Assembly: GCA_963700145.1 (NCBI GenBank)
Contig: OY969474.1
Location: 1,152,001-1,216,000 of the forward strand
Direction: 5' to 3'
Source of the DNA: an uncultured Acidobacteriota bacterium
GTDB taxonomy: Bacteria > Acidobacteriota > Thermoanaerobaculia > Multivoradales > UBA5704
DNA: 64,000 nucleotides
Position numbers and translations under genes: made by a program. Positions within the stretch are counted from its first letter, which is position 1; every line of letters starts with the position of its first letter. Positions 38,193 through 48,242 of this stretch are shown here, piece after piece. Under the pieces are notes generated by a model. The model made no database searches. It worked only from the letters and a program-made list of their open reading frames with translations, and was not told the DNA's origin.

Positions 38193-40259
<2,067 letters not shown>

Positions 40260-40335
40260 CCGTCCCTCCGCGGCGCGTAGTTTTCCAGACCGGAGCGGTC
40301 GGCGCTAGGTGGGGGTCGTGTGGCTCGTCCGCCGA

Positions 40336-41094
40336 CTAGACCTTCCGGGCGACGACGATGTCCTGGTAGTAGGGACCGGCGACGGCCTTCCAGTAGCCGG
40401 CGTGCAGGGAGACGGGCTGCAGGCCGTGACGCTCCAGATGGCGGGCCACCCAGCTCGGCTCGTAGGCGATCCCGTCCTCGGGAACGTCGGGATCGTGCAG
40501 CAGGCCTTCCTCGATCGGGTAAGAGAACGTGGGGTACGTCGTGCCGGTCCGGGCGGCCAGCCACCCGGCTTCATCGAGAAGAAAGTACGTCGAGAAGAGC
40601 CGGCCCCCGCTGCGGAGCGAGCGGGAGATCTGCGCCATGTAGTTCTGCGCCGCCCCGGGAAGGAGGTGGGTGAAGATCGAGATGGCGATGACGAGATCGA
40701 ACGACGCCGGCGGCCAGGTGAACACGTAGTGTTCCGGCGGGACCGACCCGTTGACGTTGTAAGCCGGCGTGCGGACGTCGGCATGAAAGAACTCGAATCG
40801 GCGCGGGGGCAGCTGCAAGTGCTCCGCGCACCAGTCGACGTAGACCTTCGCCGCGTCGAAGCCCACGTAGCGCCCGAACGGACCGAGGCGGTGCGACAAC
40901 GGCCAGGCGATGCGCCCCAGACCGCAGCCGACGTCCAGCACCCGATCCGAACGCCGAATCCCCGCGAGCTGCGCGATGAGCGCCACGGTGTGCTCGCCCG
41001 TCTGCCAGTAGTCCCCCGGCCCCATCCCATCCACGAGGTTGGCCGGCGGCAGCGGCGGCCGTCTGCGGTTCTGCTTCAGTGACCAGAGCGACAC
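40336..41094 (-). CDS. Class I SAM-dependent methyltransferase
   Basis: VLDVGCGLGR, FDLVIAISIFTHL. Confidence 0.85.
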   Translation of the reverse strand: MSLWSLKQNRRRPPLPPANLVDGMGPGDYWQTGEHTVALIAQLAGIRRSDRVLDVGCGLGRIAWPLSHRLGPFGRYVGFDAAKVYVDWCAEHLQLPPRRFEFFHADVRTPAYNVNGSVPPEHYVFTWPPASFDLVIAISIFTHLLPGAAQNYMAQISRSLRSGGRLFSTYFLLDEAGWLAARTGTTYPTFSYPIEEGLLHDPDVPEDGIAYEPSWVARHLERHGLQPVSLHAGYWKAVAGPYYQDIVVARKV

Positions 41095-41199
41095 ATACCT
41101 TCCTAGCGACGCCCAATGCTACTGCCGGGCTGCACGTCCACGTGCAACGCCTGGCCGATGGAATCGCCGAATCTGCGATCTGCGCTACACTCCTCACAG

Positions 41200-41679
41200 A
41201 TGGACGATTCGGGCGACTGGCTGGCGCAGAAGATCGCGGAGGACGGCGAGCGCATCCTTTCTCTGCTGCGCAGAGTCGTCGCCACCTGCGGGGTGACCCG
41301 CAAGGAGCTCGATGAGATCCTGCACAAAGGGGCGGGGTTCACGAGCGCGGTCCTGACCAGTCGGATCGAGCTCAAGCAAGAGCACGTCTCGGCGATCCTT
41401 CTCGGGCTCGGGGTCCACCCGAGCCTGTTCTACGAGGTGCTCTACCCCAGGGACCGCCCCATCGGGCCGATCGAGGCGACGGCCGATGCCGCCCGGCGGC
41501 TGGCGCTCGCCAGCCTCGGGCCGCCGCAGGTTCCGGCCCCGCCGCCGCCCGCTCCGCCGTCGCTCTCCCCCGCCGAGATCCAAGCGCTGATCGACGAGTC
41601 CGTGCGGCGCGCTCTCGCCGGCGCCGCGAGCCAGCCGCAGCGCAAGCGGCAGCCCGGCAAGCCGAAGCGCGCGCCTTAG
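41200..41679 (+). CDS. Putative XRE-like HTH regulator
   Basis: GVTRKELDEILHKGAGFTSAVLTSRIELK...ILLGLGVHP..F resembles a cro/C1-type HTH; start uncertain. Confidence 0.55.
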   Translation: MDDSGDWLAQKIAEDGERILSLLRRVVATCGVTRKELDEILHKGAGFTSAVLTSRIELKQEHVSAILLGLGVHPSLFYEVLYPRDRPIGPIEATADAARRLALASLGPPQVPAPPPPAPPSLSPAEIQALIDESVRRALAGAASQPQRKRQPGKPKRAP

Positions 41680-41691
41680 GAGGACGAACCC

Positions 41692-42228
41692 GTGGAATCC
41701 GTGAAGACAACCTCTGAATCGCGCACTTACGAAGTCAGGGCCTGGGAGTTCAACCTTCTCTTCGTCGAGCTCATTCTGCTCGCCGCACTGGCCGTCGCCT
41801 GGATCTGGTCGCTCGGCCCTAGTTTCCTCGGCGCCGGGCCGCCCTGGGCGAACGCCGCCCTGAAGGGATTTGGGTTCTTCCTCCTCGGGCTGGCGCTCTA
41901 CCCCGTGCTTTCGATCCAGAGCAGGAATTCGCACGGGCGCGAGCTGTCGCTCGGCCTCTGGATTGCCGGAGCCTTCGCGGCCTCCGTGTCACACACGACT
42001 GAGAGAGTGGCCCCTCCGGCGAGCGGCGCGGTGACGCCGCTCGCCGGCCTAGCTCAAGACGCATCCCCAATCAGGCGAATCAGGGTTGAGCGAAGATCAC
42101 GTCGTAGGTCGAAACCGGCCGCAGCTTCTCCTGCGAGTTTGACGACCAGGCGCGAGCTTGATACCGCAGGAGATTGCCGTGGGCATCTCTCCGCTCCACC
42201 GTCCTGTACGTGTACTCCAGAGCTGTGA
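41692..42228 (+). CDS. Hypothetical membrane protein (about 3 TM; 3' end doubtful)
   Basis: AGGAGG RBS; hydrophobic segments; tail overlaps the convergent gene by ~150 bp. Confidence 0.5.
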   Translation: MESVKTTSESRTYEVRAWEFNLLFVELILLAALAVAWIWSLGPSFLGAGPPWANAALKGFGFFLLGLALYPVLSIQSRNSHGRELSLGLWIAGAFAASVSHTTERVAPPASGAVTPLAGLAQDASPIRRIRVERRSRRRSKPAAASPASLTTRRELDTAGDCRGHLSAPPSCTCTPEL

Positions 42229-43030
42229 TCGCCGTCTGCGCGAGCGGCCGGATCTCAGCGGATTGCGACACGCCGTCGCGGTTCGTGTCGACCCAAACGC
42301 AAAGCTCACCGAACACGGCGTCGGCCGCGTCGATCAAGCCGTCGCCGTTGCCACCGAGTTGCAGATCATCGAGTTCGGCGAGGGCCGCATAGCCGATCTG
42401 CGCCCGCTCGCCCGACAAGAGCCGGGTAGCCCAGCCAAAGAGCTCTCCTCCATCGTCGATCACGCCATTGGCGTTGAGGTCGCGGCAGAGAAAGGCATCC
42501 TCCTCGCCGGCGCTAGTCCAGGCCAGCGCCTCGGGAGCGCCGTCGGCATCGAGATCGAACCAGGCCGGCTCCTCCGGACCGGAAAGGTGGAAACCGTTCT
42601 GGTCCAGGTCAAGAAGAATCGGACACCCATCAGGGGGCGGGCTGTCCGCCGGCAGGCAGGCTTGATTCGAGCCCCATTGGTTCGTGTAGGACGAGCCATA
42701 GATCGAGACGGTGACGCGAGCACGGTAACACTGACCGGCCGTTCCTGTATTGCGAATGTAACCGATGTATTCGCCGGCACTGACGTACGACTCCCCAGCC
42801 AGCCAGCCGCCGTCCTCCGTATCGTAGATGTAGTGGTCGCCTGCGAGCTGACACTGGGGATCCGCGTGGCCGAGGAAGTTGAAGCACTCGACCGCGGCCG
42901 AGGAGTCGATATTTTGGTTTCCGCGCCTAGTGATGGCGATCGAGCCGACCGCGTAGCTACCCTGCGAGGCCGCGGGCTGTGGAAGGGCAAAGCACGTGAG
43001 AAGCAAGGCTGCGAGGCTGCCGCGCCTCAT
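42080..43030 (-). CDS. Secreted protein with C-terminal FrpC self-processing-module (SPM)-like Ca-binding domain
   Basis: Signal peptide; CPILLDLDQNG...FDLDADG...RDLNANGVIDDGGELFG...GYAALAELD...WVDTNRDGVSQ.AE. Confidence 0.8.
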   Translation of the reverse strand: MRRGSLAALLLTCFALPQPAASQGSYAVGSIAITRRGNQNIDSSAAVECFNFLGHADPQCQLAGDHYIYDTEDGGWLAGESYVSAGEYIGYIRNTGTAGQCYRARVTVSIYGSSYTNQWGSNQACLPADSPPPDGCPILLDLDQNGFHLSGPEEPAWFDLDADGAPEALAWTSAGEEDAFLCRDLNANGVIDDGGELFGWATRLLSGERAQIGYAALAELDDLQLGGNGDGLIDAADAVFGELCVWVDTNRDGVSQSAEIRPLAQTAITALEYTYRTVERRDAHGNLLRYQARAWSSNSQEKLRPVSTYDVIFAQP

Positions 43031-43725
43031 TGACAGCCTCCTTCCGCCTGCCTCAGCTGTTCTGGCCAGCTCTCGTGCTCTGGCCAGACGATGCCGATGT
43101 CGGGAGCGACAGCCTCATAGAGAAAACGATCGAACCATGCGGCCCCAAACTCATTACGCGCCCGCACGAGTCCACGATGGCGCTTCTCGCAGAAGCCATG
43201 TGTGGCTTCGTCAATCCTCATCGAAATGCCTTCGCGCGCTGCCTTCGGTGCTCGATTGAGCTCGGCGATCAGAGCCCGGCGAGTGTTCGCCGCTGCCAGG
43301 TAGTCTCCGCCGCCGACTTGGAGGCGCACCCAAAAGTTCGCGGGCAGCCCTCCTCCAGGCGCTCGCGCCTCGACTTGCCGGCGGAAATCCTCTTGCAGTG
43401 ACACCAGTGGATGGAACGCGCGGGAGAGGAGGTGCTGGTAGACCTCCCAAGGTAGAAGCAGCTCGGGATTACGGGCTCCATTGATCACGGCAAACCCTGG
43501 CGCCGGAACAGGCCCCGGTTCGTCCTTCCTCGCGAGAGCCGCCGCGCGGCGCGCCGCGATCTGCTCGGGATCGAACCGGGCGGCCAACCGGTCTTCGGTC
43601 GTCCACTCCCACGCCGGCTTGGGAGTGGCCTCCGTCCGATCGGATGCCGCGAGCGGGAGAAGGGGGGAAAGGGAACAAAGGATCCCCAGCCATCCCGCCC
43701 TGCTGATTTCGGTAAACCTCCGCAT
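43027..43725 (-). CDS. Hypothetical exported protein, translationally coupled to the SPM-like gene
   Basis: Signal-like N-terminus; helical body; ATGA overlap at 43027-43030. Confidence 0.7.
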   Translation of the reverse strand: MRRFTEISRAGWLGILCSLSPLLPLAASDRTEATPKPAWEWTTEDRLAARFDPEQIAARRAAALARKDEPGPVPAPGFAVINGARNPELLLPWEVYQHLLSRAFHPLVSLQEDFRRQVEARAPGGGLPANFWVRLQVGGGDYLAAANTRRALIAELNRAPKAAREGISMRIDEATHGFCEKRHRGLVRARNEFGAAWFDRFLYEAVAPDIGIVWPEHESWPEQLRQAEGGCQ

Positions 43726-44018
43726 AGGATGCCCTCGGACGGAGCACCGTCCCGGTGCCGGGATTGGAACCTGCGGCTCTCGTCCTTCCTCAGTTTCTAA
43801 AGTGCGGACTTTACCGCCGGATGGGACAAAAGACAAGAAAACCGTGGAGGACGCAACAGAAACGGTCCCAGGGAGGCTGTAGAAACACCAGGAGGGGCCT
43901 CCGAGACTATCCCGCGGAGGAGTCGGCGCGTTAGCGCTCGTTGTACTTGAGGCCGCTCTCAAATGCCGAGTGCGGCGAAAGCCCCTCGGCGGGACAGCTC
44001 CGATTCCCGGCCAATGGG

Positions 44019-44257
44019 GAAGCTTCCCTTTTGAAAAGCGAAGCTTCCCCTTTGCAGAGCGAAGCTTCCCTTTTCGTTGGCGAAGCTTCCCTCTTGAAAG
44101 GCGAAGCTTCGCTTTCCGACGGCGAAGCTTGTCTTTTGGAAAGCGAAGCTTCGCTCTCGGACAGGGAAGCTTCCCCTTTGCACAGCCAAGCTTCGCTTTC
44201 CGGTGGCGAAGCTTCGCTCTTGAAAAGGGAAGCTTCGCCAACGCGTGGCGGGGCTTC
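44019..44257. repeat. Tandem array with exact 21-bp period and palindromic GAAGCTTC core (11 copies plus 1 degenerate)
   Basis: Cores start at 44019, 44040, 44061, 44082, 44103, 44124, 44145, 44166, 44187, 44208, 44229 and (44250). Confidence 0.95.
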
Positions 44258-44296
44258 CCGCCGGGGTAGCATCCACTCGCTCAGCAGCCGACGTAC

Positions 44297-45169
44297 ATGC
44301 TCCCGGAGGGTCACATGCCCGACGTGTGGGAGCCGCTGGTCCGGATCGACACCGCGCGGTGGATCGCCGCGCGGCAGCAGCTGCATGCGGCGGCGCAGGC
44401 GGCCGCGGCGCCGGGGAAGCAGCTCCTCCCCCACCAGCCGGACTTTAGCGAGCAGAGCTTCTGCTGGGACGAGGCGGCGCGGGCGCTGGCGCAGGGGGTG
44501 ATCGCCGGGCCGCGGCCGGTGCGCTCGGCGCTCCGGCCCGACCCGCCGGCCCTTCTCCTTCTCGACGGCGCAAGCCCCGCCGCACTGCGCGAGCTGCCGC
44601 TCGACGGCCTGACCCTCGAAGACGCCTTCGGCTGGCTGGAGTCCGAGCTCGCCGCGCTCCTCGGCCGCCCGGTGGCGTTCGACCGGCCGGCCGAGCCGCC
44701 GCCGCTCCCCACCGGCACCGGCGGCCGCTTCTCGACCGCCGACACCGAGGCCTTCGCGGCCCTCGCCGCCTGGTTCGCCGGCGGCCACCGGCTGCTCGCC
44801 GCCGTCGCGGCCTGCCACCCGGGGGCCGCGCCGGTGCGCTGCTGGCCGCACCACTTCGACATCGCCACCCTGCTGCCGCTCGACGAAGGCGGCGATCCGG
44901 AGACCGCGCGCTCGATCGGCGTGGGGCTCCAGCCGGGGGACGGCGCGCGGCCGGAGCCCTACCTCTACGTCACCCCCTGGCCCTACCCGGACGCCGCGCG
45001 CCTGCCGCCGCTTGCCGTGGGCTGCTGGCACATCGAGGGCTGGACGGGCGCGGTGCTGGAGGCCGAAGCTCTCGTCGCAGCGGGCATGGCGGCGGAGCAG
45101 GCGCGCCGGGCCGAGCGCTTTCTCGACGGGGCGGTCGCCGCCTGCCGGGAGCTGCTGGAACGGGACTGA
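44297..45169 (+). CDS. Hypothetical protein (DUF5996-like)
   Basis: LHAAAQ, VRCWPHHFDIA, PGD...PEPYLYVTPWP; host-like codon use. Confidence 0.65.
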   Translation: MLPEGHMPDVWEPLVRIDTARWIAARQQLHAAAQAAAAPGKQLLPHQPDFSEQSFCWDEAARALAQGVIAGPRPVRSALRPDPPALLLLDGASPAALRELPLDGLTLEDAFGWLESELAALLGRPVAFDRPAEPPPLPTGTGGRFSTADTEAFAALAAWFAGGHRLLAAVAACHPGAAPVRCWPHHFDIATLLPLDEGGDPETARSIGVGLQPGDGARPEPYLYVTPWPYPDAARLPPLAVGCWHIEGWTGAVLEAEALVAAGMAAEQARRAERFLDGAVAACRELLERD

Positions 45170-45188
45170 GACCCTGGGAGGAGGAACG

Positions 45189-46346
45189 ATGGCCGACGAA
45201 CGCTGGGTCGAGCTGGGAGACGTCGAGGAGCTCAAGCACCCGCCCTTGCGGCAGGTCACGATCGGCCGCACCCGCATCGCGCTCTCCTGGCGGGACGGCC
45301 GCTTCGGCGCCGTCTCCGGCGCCTGCAACCACGTCGGCGGGCCGCTCGGTGAGGGGACGCTCGACGGCGACTACGTCGTCTGCCCCTGGCACCACTGGAA
45401 GTTCCACCGCGCGACCGGCGAGGGGGAGCCCGGCTTCGAGGCCGACCGCGTGCCGCGCTACGAGCTGCGCGAGGAGGGCGGGAAGCTCCTCGTCAACCTC
45501 GCGCCGGCGACCCGGCGCAACAAGCTGCCGCACGCGCCGCACCCGCTCACCCGGCCGCTCGAGCGGGCGCCGGGGCCGGTGCGCCTCTTGGGGATCTCGA
45601 CGACGGCGATGGACAACGCGTACCCGCGCTACTCGACCTCGGACGCCCTCCTCGAGAGCGCCCTGGCGGCCGCCGGCGAGCACGGCGCCGAGACCAAGCT
45701 CGTGCGCCTGCGCGACCTCCGCTTCCGCGCCTGCGAGGGCTACTACTCGAAGGCCGCCCACGCCTGCACCTGGCCCTGCTCGATCACCGAGATGGACCCG
45801 CAGGACCAGATGGACGCGGTCTACGAGGGGATGGTCCACTGGGGGGACGTGCTGCTGCTCTCGACGCCGATCCGCTGGGGGTCGGCGAGCTCGCTCTTTT
45901 TCAAGATGGCCGAGCGCCTCAACTGCGTGCAGAACCAGGTGACGATCGGCAACCGCGTCCTGCTGCGCAACAAGGTGGCGGCGTTCATCATCACCGGCGG
46001 CCAGGACAACGTCCAGTCAGTGGCCGGGCACCTCCTCGGCTTCTTCGGCGAGCTGGGGTACCTCTTCCCGCAGTTCCCTTACGTCGCCCACAGCCGCGGC
46101 TGGTCGGCCGAGGACATGGAGCGCAACGTCGCCTTCGTGCAGCAGAGCCGCGCGCTGCACGAGGGGGCGGCGGCCCTCGCCCGCCGCGCGGTGGACATGG
46201 CGGGCCTGCTCCTCGCCGCCCACGCCGCCGAGGCGCCGCGGGTCGAGCGCGCCGGCCGCAAGGGGTGCCCGCCGACGATGCACGAGTCCCCGGCCAAGGC
46301 CGCGGCGGAGACCGAAGCGGCCGCCGCCGCGCCCCCCGGCGGCTGA
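45189..46346 (+). CDS. Rieske [2Fe-2S] domain fused to flavodoxin-like NAD(P)H oxidoreductase
   Basis: CNH...CPWH; then ACEG...CTWPC, STPIRWG, GGQD; GGAGGAGG RBS. Confidence 0.85.
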   Translation: MADERWVELGDVEELKHPPLRQVTIGRTRIALSWRDGRFGAVSGACNHVGGPLGEGTLDGDYVVCPWHHWKFHRATGEGEPGFEADRVPRYELREEGGKLLVNLAPATRRNKLPHAPHPLTRPLERAPGPVRLLGISTTAMDNAYPRYSTSDALLESALAAAGEHGAETKLVRLRDLRFRACEGYYSKAAHACTWPCSITEMDPQDQMDAVYEGMVHWGDVLLLSTPIRWGSASSLFFKMAERLNCVQNQVTIGNRVLLRNKVAAFIITGGQDNVQSVAGHLLGFFGELGYLFPQFPYVAHSRGWSAEDMERNVAFVQQSRALHEGAAALARRAVDMAGLLLAAHAAEAPRVERAGRKGCPPTMHESPAKAAAETEAAAAAPPGG

Positions 46347-46449
46347 GCAACCATCCCGCCTTCCGGCGGGACATACCGGGTGCGGCGTAAATTTTCCCCG
46401 CCCCGGCTGTTACGAAACGGCCGTCCGGCGCGTAGTAAAGGACGAGAGG

Positions 46450-46710
46450 ATGCGCACCTCCCCCGACGCCCCCCGCGAGCGGCGCCCCCGGCGCCCGGCC
46501 GCCCCCCGCCCCGAAGTCGTGGCGGAGGTGGCGCGGGAGTGTCTGCGCCGCGAGCGCGAGCGGGCCGCCGCGCCCGACCCCTCCCCCGTCCCGGCGGTGC
46601 CGCGCGCCACTCGCGAGCCCTGGAGCCGGCGCAAGCGCCCCACCGGCTCGGCGCCGACGATCGAGCTGATCCGCTCGCTCGCCCGCGGCGAGCGCACCCG
46701 CCAGCAGTGA
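46450..46710 (+). CDS. Small hypothetical protein
   Basis: GAGAGG before ATG; GTGA overlap with next gene. Confidence 0.45.
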   Translation: MRTSPDAPRERRPRRPAAPRPEVVAEVARECLRRERERAAAPDPSPVPAVPRATREPWSRRKRPTGSAPTIELIRSLARGERTRQQ

Positions 46711-48242
46711 CGGCGGCGGCCCCCCGCGCCGCGGGGCGCCGTCTCGAGCCGGCCCTCTTCGCCCTCTTCGTCCTGCTCTACCTGCTGCCCCTCTGGGCGG
46801 TCGAGCGGGTGCCCACCAACGACGGCCCCAGCCACCTCTACAACGCCTGGCTGCTGCGCGAGCTGGCCTGGGGAGACCCCCACCCGGCCCTCGACGCCGC
46901 CTTCGACGTCCGCGCCGAGCCGATCCCCAACTGGCTCGGCCACGCCGCGCTCGCCCTGCTGATGGGCGTCGTTTCGCCGGCGACCGCCGAGAAGCTCCTG
47001 CTGTCGGCCTGCATCGTCCTCTTCCTGCTCGCCCTCCGCTACCTCGCCGGCAGCGTCGAGCCGGAGGCCCGCCGCTACGCCTGGCTCGGCTTCCCGCTGG
47101 CCTACAACTTCCTCTTCCAGGTCGGCTTCACCAACTACTGCTTCGGCCTCGGCCTGGCGATGCTGGCGGTCGGGGTGTGGTGGCGGCGGCGCGAGCGGCC
47201 GGGGCCCGCCACCGCGCTCCTGCTCAACCTGCTCCTCCTCCTGGCGTACTTCGCCCACGTCCTCGCCCTCGCCCTGGCGCTCGGGGCGATCGGGGTGCTC
47301 TGGCTGCTGACGCTGCGCCGCGCCGGCTGGCGCCGGCACCTCTTGCACCTGGCGATCCTGGCGCCGCAGGCGCTCCTCCCGCTCTGGTTCCTGGCCACGC
47401 GCTCGCTCGCCCCGGTCGGCCGGGAGTGGGCCGGCGAGCAGCTCTGGGGGTACCTCCTGGGGCTCGAGGTGCTGTGGACCTTCGACCGCAGCCAGCTGCC
47501 GCTGGGCCGGGCGCTCGCCCTGCTCTGGGGCGGGCTGGCGCTCGCCACGCTGCTGTGCGAGAACGTGGACTGGGCGCGGCGGCGGCCCCGCGTGCGCCCG
47601 GCCGACGCGTTCCTCCTCCTCGCCGTCCTGGCGGTCGCCCTCTACGCCTGGGCGCCGCCGGGGCTCGCCGGCGGCATCCTCGTCAAACCGCGGCTGAGCC
47701 TCGTCCCCTACCTCTTCCTGGTCCCCTGGTTCTCGCCGCGGCTGGGACGGTGGCTCGAGCGCCTGGCGGCGCCGGCCTTCGTCCTCCTCGCCGCCGGCGT
47801 CCTGGTCTGCCAGCTCCGCGGGTACCGCCGCCTCGACGGCGAGATGCGGGCCTTCCTCCGCCCGCTCGCGGCCGTGCCGCGGCACGCGCGCTTCGTGCCG
47901 CTGCTCTTCCAGCGCCGCCGGCCGGAGGCGCGGGTGGCCCCCCTCTACCACGCCGCCGCCTACGCCGCGCTCGAGCGCGAGCTGGTCGACTGGGGCAACT
48001 ACGAAGCCGGCACCGACCACTTCCCCGTCCGCTTCGCCCCCGGCCTGCCGCGGCCGGACATCTGGACCCTGGAGACCCGGCCGATCGGCTACCGCGTCGG
48101 CGTCCACCGCGACCGCGTGGACGCCGTCTACACCTGGCACCTCCCCGCCGGCAGCGCCGTCGCGCGGCGCCTCCGCCGCGACTACGACCTGGTGCGCGAG
48201 GAGGGCCCGGGGCGGGTCTACCTCCGCAAAGGGCTAAGATAG
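46707..48242 (+). CDS. Polytopic membrane protein, GT-C glycosyltransferase-like
   Basis: PTNDGPSH loop after TM1, GFTNY, many TM segments, soluble C-terminal domain. Confidence 0.6.
   Translation: MTAAAPRAAGRRLEPALFALFVLLYLLPLWAVERVPTNDGPSHLYNAWLLRELAWGDPHPALDAAFDVRAEPIPNWLGHAALALLMGVVSPATAEKLLLSACIVLFLLALRYLAGSVEPEARRYAWLGFPLAYNFLFQVGFTNYCFGLGLAMLAVGVWWRRRERPGPATALLLNLLLLLAYFAHVLALALALGAIGVLWLLTLRRAGWRRHLLHLAILAPQALLPLWFLATRSLAPVGREWAGEQLWGYLLGLEVLWTFDRSQLPLGRALALLWGGLALATLLCENVDWARRRPRVRPADAFLLLAVLAVALYAWAPPGLAGGILVKPRLSLVPYLFLVPWFSPRLGRWLERLAAPAFVLLAAGVLVCQLRGYRRLDGEMRAFLRPLAAVPRHARFVPLLFQRRRPEARVAPLYHAAAYAALERELVDWGNYEAGTDHFPVRFAPGLPRPDIWTLETRPIGYRVGVHRDRVDAVYTWHLPAGSAVARRLRRDYDLVREEGPGRVYLRKGLR

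Follow-up and report, generated by a model that had tools for sequence, protein, structure and literature searches.

The gene P0001 lies on the minus strand of a 64,000-nucleotide stretch of contig OY969474.1 (the window), from an uncultured soil bacterium of the phylum Acidobacteriota. It encodes a protein of 316 amino acids (aa), which comprises a signal peptide, an N-terminal passenger, and a C-terminal domain. The C-terminal domain is a self-processing module (SPM) of the type known from FrpC, a meningococcal protein that cuts itself in response to Ca2+, by sequence as well as by fold. The scissile aspartate of FrpC is replaced by a cysteine, Cys136, and in all evaluable short relatives that were sampled the same place is held by Cys, Ser, or Thr. 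The chances that the module cleaves itself through Cys136 are put at about even. The gene directly upstream encodes P2, a second exported protein. The fold is known; what appears to be new is the predicted chemistry and the export route, which both differ from those of FrpC, and the partner family.

Only the two FrpC SPM chains (FrpC residues 415–591) were matched by P0001 in a phmmer search of all Protein Data Bank (PDB) chains, 6sjw (E 9.8e-32, P0001 residues 137–298 to chain residues 1–157) and 6sjx (E 4.6e-31). Pro137 aligns with FrpC Pro415, the first residue of the cleaved module, so that Cys136 occupies the place of the scissile Asp414. The AlphaFold2 model of P0001, made with 118 homologues, has a mean predicted local distance difference test score (pLDDT) of 93.6. 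Its first and second Foldseek matches are again 6sjw and 6sjx, with target-normalised template modelling (TM) scores of 0.79 and 0.80 and an E value of 3.5e-15. The likeness to the FrpC SPM cannot plausibly be a matter of chance, and it bears out the assignment made in a preliminary description of this DNA. No Hint or intein chain is present among the Foldseek matches of the model at E values up to 1e-3; the C-terminal domain matches SPM structures instead. Every homologue carries the precomputed database label PF26745.1, which is taken here without its description and may already cover these proteins.

The FrpC residues were transferred to P0001 through the phmmer alignment with 6sjw, which stops at P0001 residue 298. 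All four EF-hand-like sites of the FrpC module, predicted to bind Ca2+ here too, are kept in P0001 and its family. The first site comprises D141, D143, N145, and G146 plus D178 (FrpC D419, D421, D423, and G424 plus D456), and the second D184, N186, N188, and G189 to E196 (FrpC D462–E474). The third runs from D221 to D237 (FrpC D499–D511), with a loop that is 5 residues longer than in FrpC, and the fourth comprises D248, N250, and D252 to E259 (FrpC D521–E532). The Ca2+-site residues are mostly invariant or at least 90% conserved in the family, and D141, D178, D184, E196, D221, D248, and E259 are invariant or nearly so. The same is true of W171, L197, G199, and G213, which correspond to the port residues W451, L475, G477, and G491 that surround the cleavage site of FrpC (PMC7078468). 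P0001 D310–F313 lies beyond the printed alignment and very probably corresponds to FrpC D579–L582; this segment is likewise invariant or nearly so, and D310 is invariant. Unlike FrpC, the family has a 5-residue insert (303–307) directly before the last, C-terminal strand. According to the accessible part of PMC7078468, the scissile bond of FrpC bends over its last strand. The polar residues T172, H/R148, H/R251, R289, and T308 are conserved here and are absent from Asp-type modules.

Relatives were collected in two ways, by a word-indexed search (166 relatives, of which the best 120 were taken) and by an exhaustive HMMER search (20,048 representatives at E values up to 1e-3 and 1,571 up to 1e-30, of which the best 150 were taken). 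With each SPM domain placed by its alignment to P0001, the residue preceding the Pro was tabulated, as the preliminary description had suggested. Proteins of up to 600 aa yielded 244 domains: 128 Cys-Pro, 88 Ser-Pro, 23 Thr-Pro, one Thr-Ala, and 4 that are truncated and not evaluable. All 240 evaluable domains of these short relatives have Cys (128), Ser (88), or Thr (24) before Pro or Ala, and none of them has Asp, Ala, Gly, or Asn at the junction. Cys, Ser, or Thr before Pro is a family rule among the short single-module relatives. The residue before the nucleophile is variable, with 91 Asn, 43 Gly, 18 Thr, 17 Pro, and others.

A FastTree tree was made from the 240 domains, aligned from the Pro onward with the junction column left out. 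On this tree the junction residue switches at least 39 times, always within Cys, Ser, and Thr. Ala, Pro, and Gly are single-base neighbours of Ser and Thr codons, and none of them is fixed at the junction. We read this restriction, found in samples of the nearest neighbours of the query, as purifying selection for a side-chain nucleophile.

Proteins of more than 600 aa, most of them with two to four modules, yielded 47 domains, two of which are not evaluable. They comprise 9 Asp-Pro, 9 Pro-Pro, 8 Ala-Pro, and 7 Ser-Pro, with Gln, Glu, Gly, Leu, Tyr, and Thr scattered among the rest; by the junction residue alone there are 9 Asp, 9 Pro, 9 Ala, and 10 Ser. Since the modules of these giant proteins vary at this place, the SPM fold itself does not need Cys, Ser, or Thr at the junction.

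A second sample was drawn with an Asp-Pro module as the query (residues 325–500 of P0171, a protein of 1,281 aa) and with targets shorter than 704 aa. Its 128 domains comprise 47 Ser-Pro, 38 Thr-Pro, 30 Asp-Pro, 7 Ala-Pro, one Cys-Pro, and 5 others, and many of the proteins come from Proteobacteria and Cyanobacteria. Asp-Pro modules follow GH108 lysozyme, SLT, and lipase_3 passengers, Ser-Pro modules follow M23 peptidase and glucosaminidase passengers, and the DUF6973 passenger is followed by either Ser-Pro or Cys-Pro. One protein, P0372, has a Ser-Pro module plus RTX repeats. Like architectures thus carry Asp or Ser, Thr, or Cys interchangeably, as is expected if both kinds self-process. The Cys form is nearly confined to the Acidobacteriota group (128 domains versus 1). 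Outside this phylum, P0316, P0319, P0321, P0328, and P0306 have the SPM after peptidoglycan hydrolase or lipase domains, with Asp-Pro or Ser-Pro at the junction.

The mature P0001 chain contains seven Cys, four of which are located in the passenger (C49, C60, C101, and C125). C182 accompanies C244 in all 105 sequences where the latter occurs, with Cys, Ser, or Thr at the junction alike, and this fits a C182–C244 disulfide within the SPM. Cys residues were counted in 91 C-type proteins that are full-length and have a recognisable signal peptide, with the signal-peptide cut set by a crude heuristic; the passenger number is even in 86, and the total of the mature protein is odd in 79. The even passenger count, the co-occurrence of C182 and C244, and the odd total indicate that the junction Cys136 is the unpaired one. 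A disulfide role for Cys136 was rejected on this parity. A Cys-Pro heme-regulatory motif or a metal ligand was rejected because Ser and Thr substitute freely, and a lipobox was rejected for want of a match.

Cys, Ser, and Thr usually act in autoprocessing by attack on the preceding carbonyl in an N-to-S or N-to-O acyl shift, as in inteins and the Hedgehog processing domain. To our knowledge, none of the three can attack its own carbonyl productively, and an acyl shift on the preceding carbonyl is thus proposed. No Asp anhydride can form where Asp is missing, and according to PMC7846742 FrpC cleavage is lost in the D414A mutant; a module without this Asp therefore uses other chemistry or none. 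The route favoured here is a Ca2+-triggered N-to-S acyl shift at Gly135–Cys136, in which a (thio)ester would release or transfer the passenger. Its chances are evenly balanced. The altered chemistry of the preliminary description was either Cys-based or placed at the Asp two residues upstream; the first alternative is favoured by the 240 of 240 Cys, Ser, and Thr junctions, and the second is not supported, as that position is variable.

In the proposed route, P0001 would be a Sec-exported precursor with an immunoglobulin (Ig)-like passenger and a Ca2+-folded SPM, and a Cys nucleophile would replace the FrpC-type Asp. Once in the periplasm or outside the cell, where Ca2+ is abundant, the module would fold round its four Ca2+ sites and strain its own N-terminal junction. 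The Cys136 side chain would then attack the Gly135 carbonyl. Resolution of the resulting thioester by water would release the passenger. Resolution by an amine or hydroxyl acceptor would attach the passenger covalently, which would be the counterpart of the FrpC 'clip and link' reaction. The SPM would be left with an N-terminal Cys-Pro. A wider generalisation, that SPMs of the C/S/T type are widespread Ca2+-triggered (thio)ester generators which, after export from the cytoplasm, turn the passenger C-terminus into an activated ester and hand it to a specific acceptor, is considered unlikely. The acceptor might be an amine of P2, peptidoglycan, or a lipid of the membrane, for instance phosphatidylethanolamine. 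If this generalisation held, bacteria would have a Hedgehog-like means of protein anchoring or ligation without sortase or ATP, and the modules would offer a natural calcium-switchable alternative to inteins for the production of protein thioesters.

Several points weigh against self-cleavage through Cys136. Self-cleavage by SPMs of the C/S/T type is so far a prediction. Both homologue samples consist of the nearest neighbours of their queries and are not a random draw from the 20,048 representatives. Ser before Pro or Ala is also seen in 10 of the 47 domains of the giant proteins, in internal repeated modules where serial cleavage seems unlikely, so that Cys, Ser, or Thr alone is no proof of activity. 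Under oxidising conditions outside the cytoplasm, an unpaired Cys might instead undergo modification or enter a disulfide with another molecule. In FrpC, a transient fifth Ca2+ site is formed by the D414 carbonyl, D478, and D579, according to the accessible part of PMC7078468. The place of D478 is taken in P0001 by W200, which is variable (Tyr, Asn, Phe, or Trp in C-type relatives), and D310, invariant, is likely at the place of D579.

The loss of the fifth-site Asp would also suit a non-cleaving SPM, a Ca2+-dependent folding, stabilising, or anchoring domain like dockerin or RTX-like modules, with a junction residue that is structural at the mouth of the port. This alternative, which the preliminary description had raised in the form of a non-cleaving Ca sensor, is rated as rather unlikely, even though it finds further support in the tandem SPM-like modules of giant proteins, which have Pro, Ala, Gln, or Ser at the junction and are presumably structural. 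It would also agree with the presence of the module on many unrelated passengers, including metzincin-like proteases, as for a generic C-terminal Ca2+ module. However, a steric role alone predicts Ala and Gly, and neither is found in the 240 sequences despite the many substitutions at the site. An exposed structural position in an exported protein is ill suited to Cys, yet this residue is kept unpaired, and the port residues round the cleavage site are strongly conserved.

P2 (P0002) is, by sequence and model, a new exported all-alpha family. Its N-terminus is signal-like, with a positive stretch and then a hydrophobic one, and its all-alpha model has a pLDDT of 90.2. No PDB fold match was obtained with Foldseek at E values up to 1e-3, the best VIA-align Z score is 4.3, to generic helical pairs, and no usable match was found in the ESM Atlas. 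Its 18 database relatives are all labelled 'hypothetical'. R46, R50, G83, P87, C179, L202, Y203, and C231 are invariant in the family; C231 is the penultimate residue and lies within a conserved C-terminal motif, GGC followed by Arg, Gln, or Lys. An AAGGAGG ribosome-binding site stands just before the P0001 start, near the end of P2, and the overlap of the two genes marks them as translationally coupled.

The neighbourhood was compared in 80 related loci from species-representative genomes, mostly metagenome-assembled genomes of Thermoanaerobaculia, Pyrinomonadaceae, and Blastocatellia. Of these 80 loci, 20 have a P2 homologue directly upstream in the same orientation. The 4-nucleotide overlap of the window recurs in L004, L010, L014, and L060, and six more loci have a 10-nucleotide overlap when the start of the longest open reading frame (ORF) is taken. 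Among the SPM-bearing ORFs of the fetched loci, 16 have both a P0001-like passenger and P2 upstream, and 64 have neither. Another 3 have P2 upstream with no P0001-like passenger detected, and 3 have the passenger without P2, among them L026, an ORF-calling artefact, and L007, at a contig end. The presence of P2 tracks the passenger type and not the SPM. In L002:3217-5004 the P2 family occurs as a tandem duplicate upstream of the SPM gene, and in L026:3577-4926 as a fused double-length protein of 449 aa.

Other SPM subfamilies have their own clusters of exported proteins, of 11 and 7 loci, all of them upstream. The 11-locus cluster, which includes L016, L020–L025, L028, and L029, consists of signal-peptide proteins of about 270 aa that are unrelated to P2 and precede a different Cys-Pro subfamily. 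The 7 loci represent a third upstream partner family. This suggests that passenger-specific partner genes are a general feature, and the recurring unit is an exported partner followed by a passenger, Cys, Ser, or Thr, and the SPM. The 'two-gene system' of the preliminary description stands in so far as the pair is of Sec type, coupled through ATGA, and conserved. It does not stand as a property of the SPM, since P2 follows the passenger and other passengers have other partners. P2 may act as a passenger-specific partner, whether receptor, chaperone, or acceptor, in a gene order like that of FrpD and FrpC.

The conserved upstream partners, together with the two invariant Cys of P2, one of them penultimate in its C-terminal motif, could also mean that the C/S/T-Pro junction is a site for another enzyme. 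This would be a sortase-like transpeptidase, a protease, or a glycosyl- or acyl-transferase, with P2 or an unlinked protein as the processor. Such a role is quite improbable, as the partners change with the passenger type whereas the junction motif is constant, P2 is unlike any enzyme family or fold, and the domain has as its homologue a module that is proven to cleave itself. Asp chemistry at Asp134, which P0001 does possess two residues upstream of Cys136, is highly improbable, because the 128 C-type relatives vary at position 134 (73 Glu, 21 Pro, 9 Asp, 7 Ser, and others), and Asp134 stands before a Gly, not a Pro, and is not within the aligned part of the SPM.

The passenger was regarded in the preliminary description as a 'small disulfide-rich effector', a term that finds no support here. 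It is modelled by AlphaFold2 as an Ig-like beta-sandwich of seven strands with pLDDT above 90, it has weak Foldseek matches to ApaG, CARDB, and PapD-type sandwiches, and nothing in it shows the mark of a toxin. C101 and C125 are kept in at least 90% of the homologue alignment A1. Passengers of the P0001 type are present in 109 of the 262 collected proteins, the query included. The 111 short relatives with other passengers include 17 with weak Pfam matches to metallopeptidases (M10, M7, and reprolysin-like), 6 with DUF6289, and 2 with an InlB B-repeat.

The SPMs of FrpC and ApxIVA (6sjw and 6sjx) share with the P0001 domain their homology, the invariant Pro at the start of the module, the four Ca2+ sites, and the port. 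As in FrpC, the payload is N-terminal of the module, and an exported partner gene lies directly upstream. According to the accessible parts of PMC5233953 and PMC7078468, frpD is located upstream of frpC, and its lipoprotein product binds the FrpC passenger. PMC7078468 describes an SPM restricted to RTX proteins that acts only via an Asp-Pro anhydride, and in PMC7846742 and PMC12538545 it is being engineered as the 'NeissLock' ligation tool. In contrast, P0001 has Cys136-Pro137 (its relatives Ser or Thr) where the scissile Asp-Pro of the clip-and-link RTX class is found, and it comes from soil Acidobacteriota. It lacks RTX repeats and ends 6 residues past D310, with the module at the extreme C-terminus and a Sec-type signal at the N-terminus instead. 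The Cys, Ser, or Thr form of the SPM was not found in the accessible SPM and clip-and-link literature; the supplementary alignment of PMC12538545 is outside that scope and may bear on the matter. No literature linking FrpC with Acidobacteria was found.

Hedgehog/Hog proteins and inteins carry out Hint autoprocessing by an N-to-S or N-to-O acyl shift, with Cys, Ser, or Thr interchangeably as the first residue. P0001 resembles them in its signal peptide, variable N-terminal cargo, Gly-Cys junction, and C-terminal processing domain, and a cargo (thio)ester would be expected. In the SPM family, too, the processing domain starts with Cys, Ser, or Thr, a likeness of mechanism only, and the residue before the nucleophile is variable as at intein junctions. 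Unlike Hedgehog and intein domains, the SPM does not have the Hint fold and would be controlled by Ca2+, so that a working principle is shared and not membership. Cis-autoproteolysis is known elsewhere at the Asp of GDPH in von Willebrand factor D domains (MUC2 and FCGBP), an Asp-based cut like that of FrpC, and with a Ser, Thr, or Cys nucleophile in SEA, GAIN/GPS, Nup98, and Ntn hydrolases. These systems likewise self-cleave at a strained peptide bond, but they have no sequence or fold kinship with the SPM and are not known to be Ca2+-triggered via EF-hand-like loops.

The N-terminus of P0001, MRRGSLAALLLTCFALPQPAAS, is Sec-signal-like, with positive charges and then a hydrophobic run, and the signal peptide is probably cut after AAS. 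The signal region has low pLDDT in the model, with a helix at residues 5–13. After the PPPDG linker, C136-P137 is followed by ILLDLDQNG, and the module fills the remainder up to the C-terminus. The sequence features given in the preliminary description, namely the signal peptide, the passenger of about 110 aa with 4 Cys, PPPDG, CPILLDLDQNG, and the position of the Cys codon, all agree with this reading (Table 1).

Table 1. Positions in the window of the P2 and P0001 genes and of the parts of P0001.
Feature	Position	Strand	Basis
P2 (P0002), 232 aa, exported, all-alpha	43027..43725	(-)	translation; best start ATG at 43725
ATGA overlap, P2 stop (TGA) and P0001 start (ATG)	43027-43030	(-)	sequence
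P0001 gene, 316-aa exported passenger-Cys-SPM protein	42080-43030	(-)	ORF and translation
Signal peptide, P0001 residues 1-23, MRRGSLAALLLTCFALPQPAASQ	42962..43030	(-)	read from sequence; model
Passenger, P0001 residues 24-135, Ig-like beta-sandwich ending in the PPPDG linker	42626..42961	(-)	model
Cys136 codon TGT, proposed nucleophile, at the FrpC Asp414 position	42623..42625	(-)	alignment to 6sjw
SPM domain, P0001 residues 137-316, up to the C-terminus	42083..42622	(-)	sequence and fold match
P0001 stop codon	42080-42082	(-)	

P0001 occurs as a single copy in its own one-contig genome of 5.46 Mb. A Pfam search of P0001 gave no RTX-repeat match and no HemolysinCabind, and neither P0001 nor P2 has a family match in the copies of Pfam and NCBIfam that were searched. 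A GEVED match (E 0.08) was set aside as weak. The seven flanking ORFs (38193–48242) encode GlgE, a methyltransferase, a Rieske/FMN-reductase protein, and four proteins without a family. No gene of a type I secretion system is present among these seven, the part of the window that was checked for one; the absence of RTX repeats and of such genes was also reported in the preliminary description.

Of 301 genomes sampled from the phylum, 28 contain SPM matches at E values of 1e-10 or better, in a patchy distribution and with up to 11 in one genome. The stretch from 42 to 44 kb (42001–44000), which holds the two-gene module, has the lowest G+C content of the window, 0.64 versus 0.69–0.77 elsewhere. 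The low G+C and the patchy distribution are consistent with lateral acquisition of the module.

At 44019–44236, about 290 nucleotides upstream of the P2 start, a 21-nucleotide unit with the palindrome GAAGCTTC is repeated 10.4 times in tandem. Arrays of GAAGCTTC with 21-nucleotide spacing are present at a dozen or more other sites in the genome, with 44 matches of the array pattern per strand versus 0 for the reversed control, and their spacers are of an AT-richer and a GC-rich kind. A convergent ORF of 178 aa on the plus strand (41692–42228) has hydrophobic segments and no Pfam match, overlaps the 3' end of P0001 by about 150 nucleotides, and may be spurious. The stretch is found in soil-metagenome DNA sequencing runs, and no RNA run is listed for it.

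The SPM fold is common outside RTX proteins, where it is joined to many kinds of secreted passenger, and most of the sampled relatives have Cys, Ser, or Thr where the catalytic Asp is expected. If modules of the C/S/T type do cleave, a single scaffold has moved between two of the classic routes to autoproteolysis. Protein thioesters whose formation is induced by calcium would then have immediate use in protein ligation, and a function could be assigned to many 'hypothetical' proteins that soil Acidobacteriota export, as well as to the partner genes that lack annotation.

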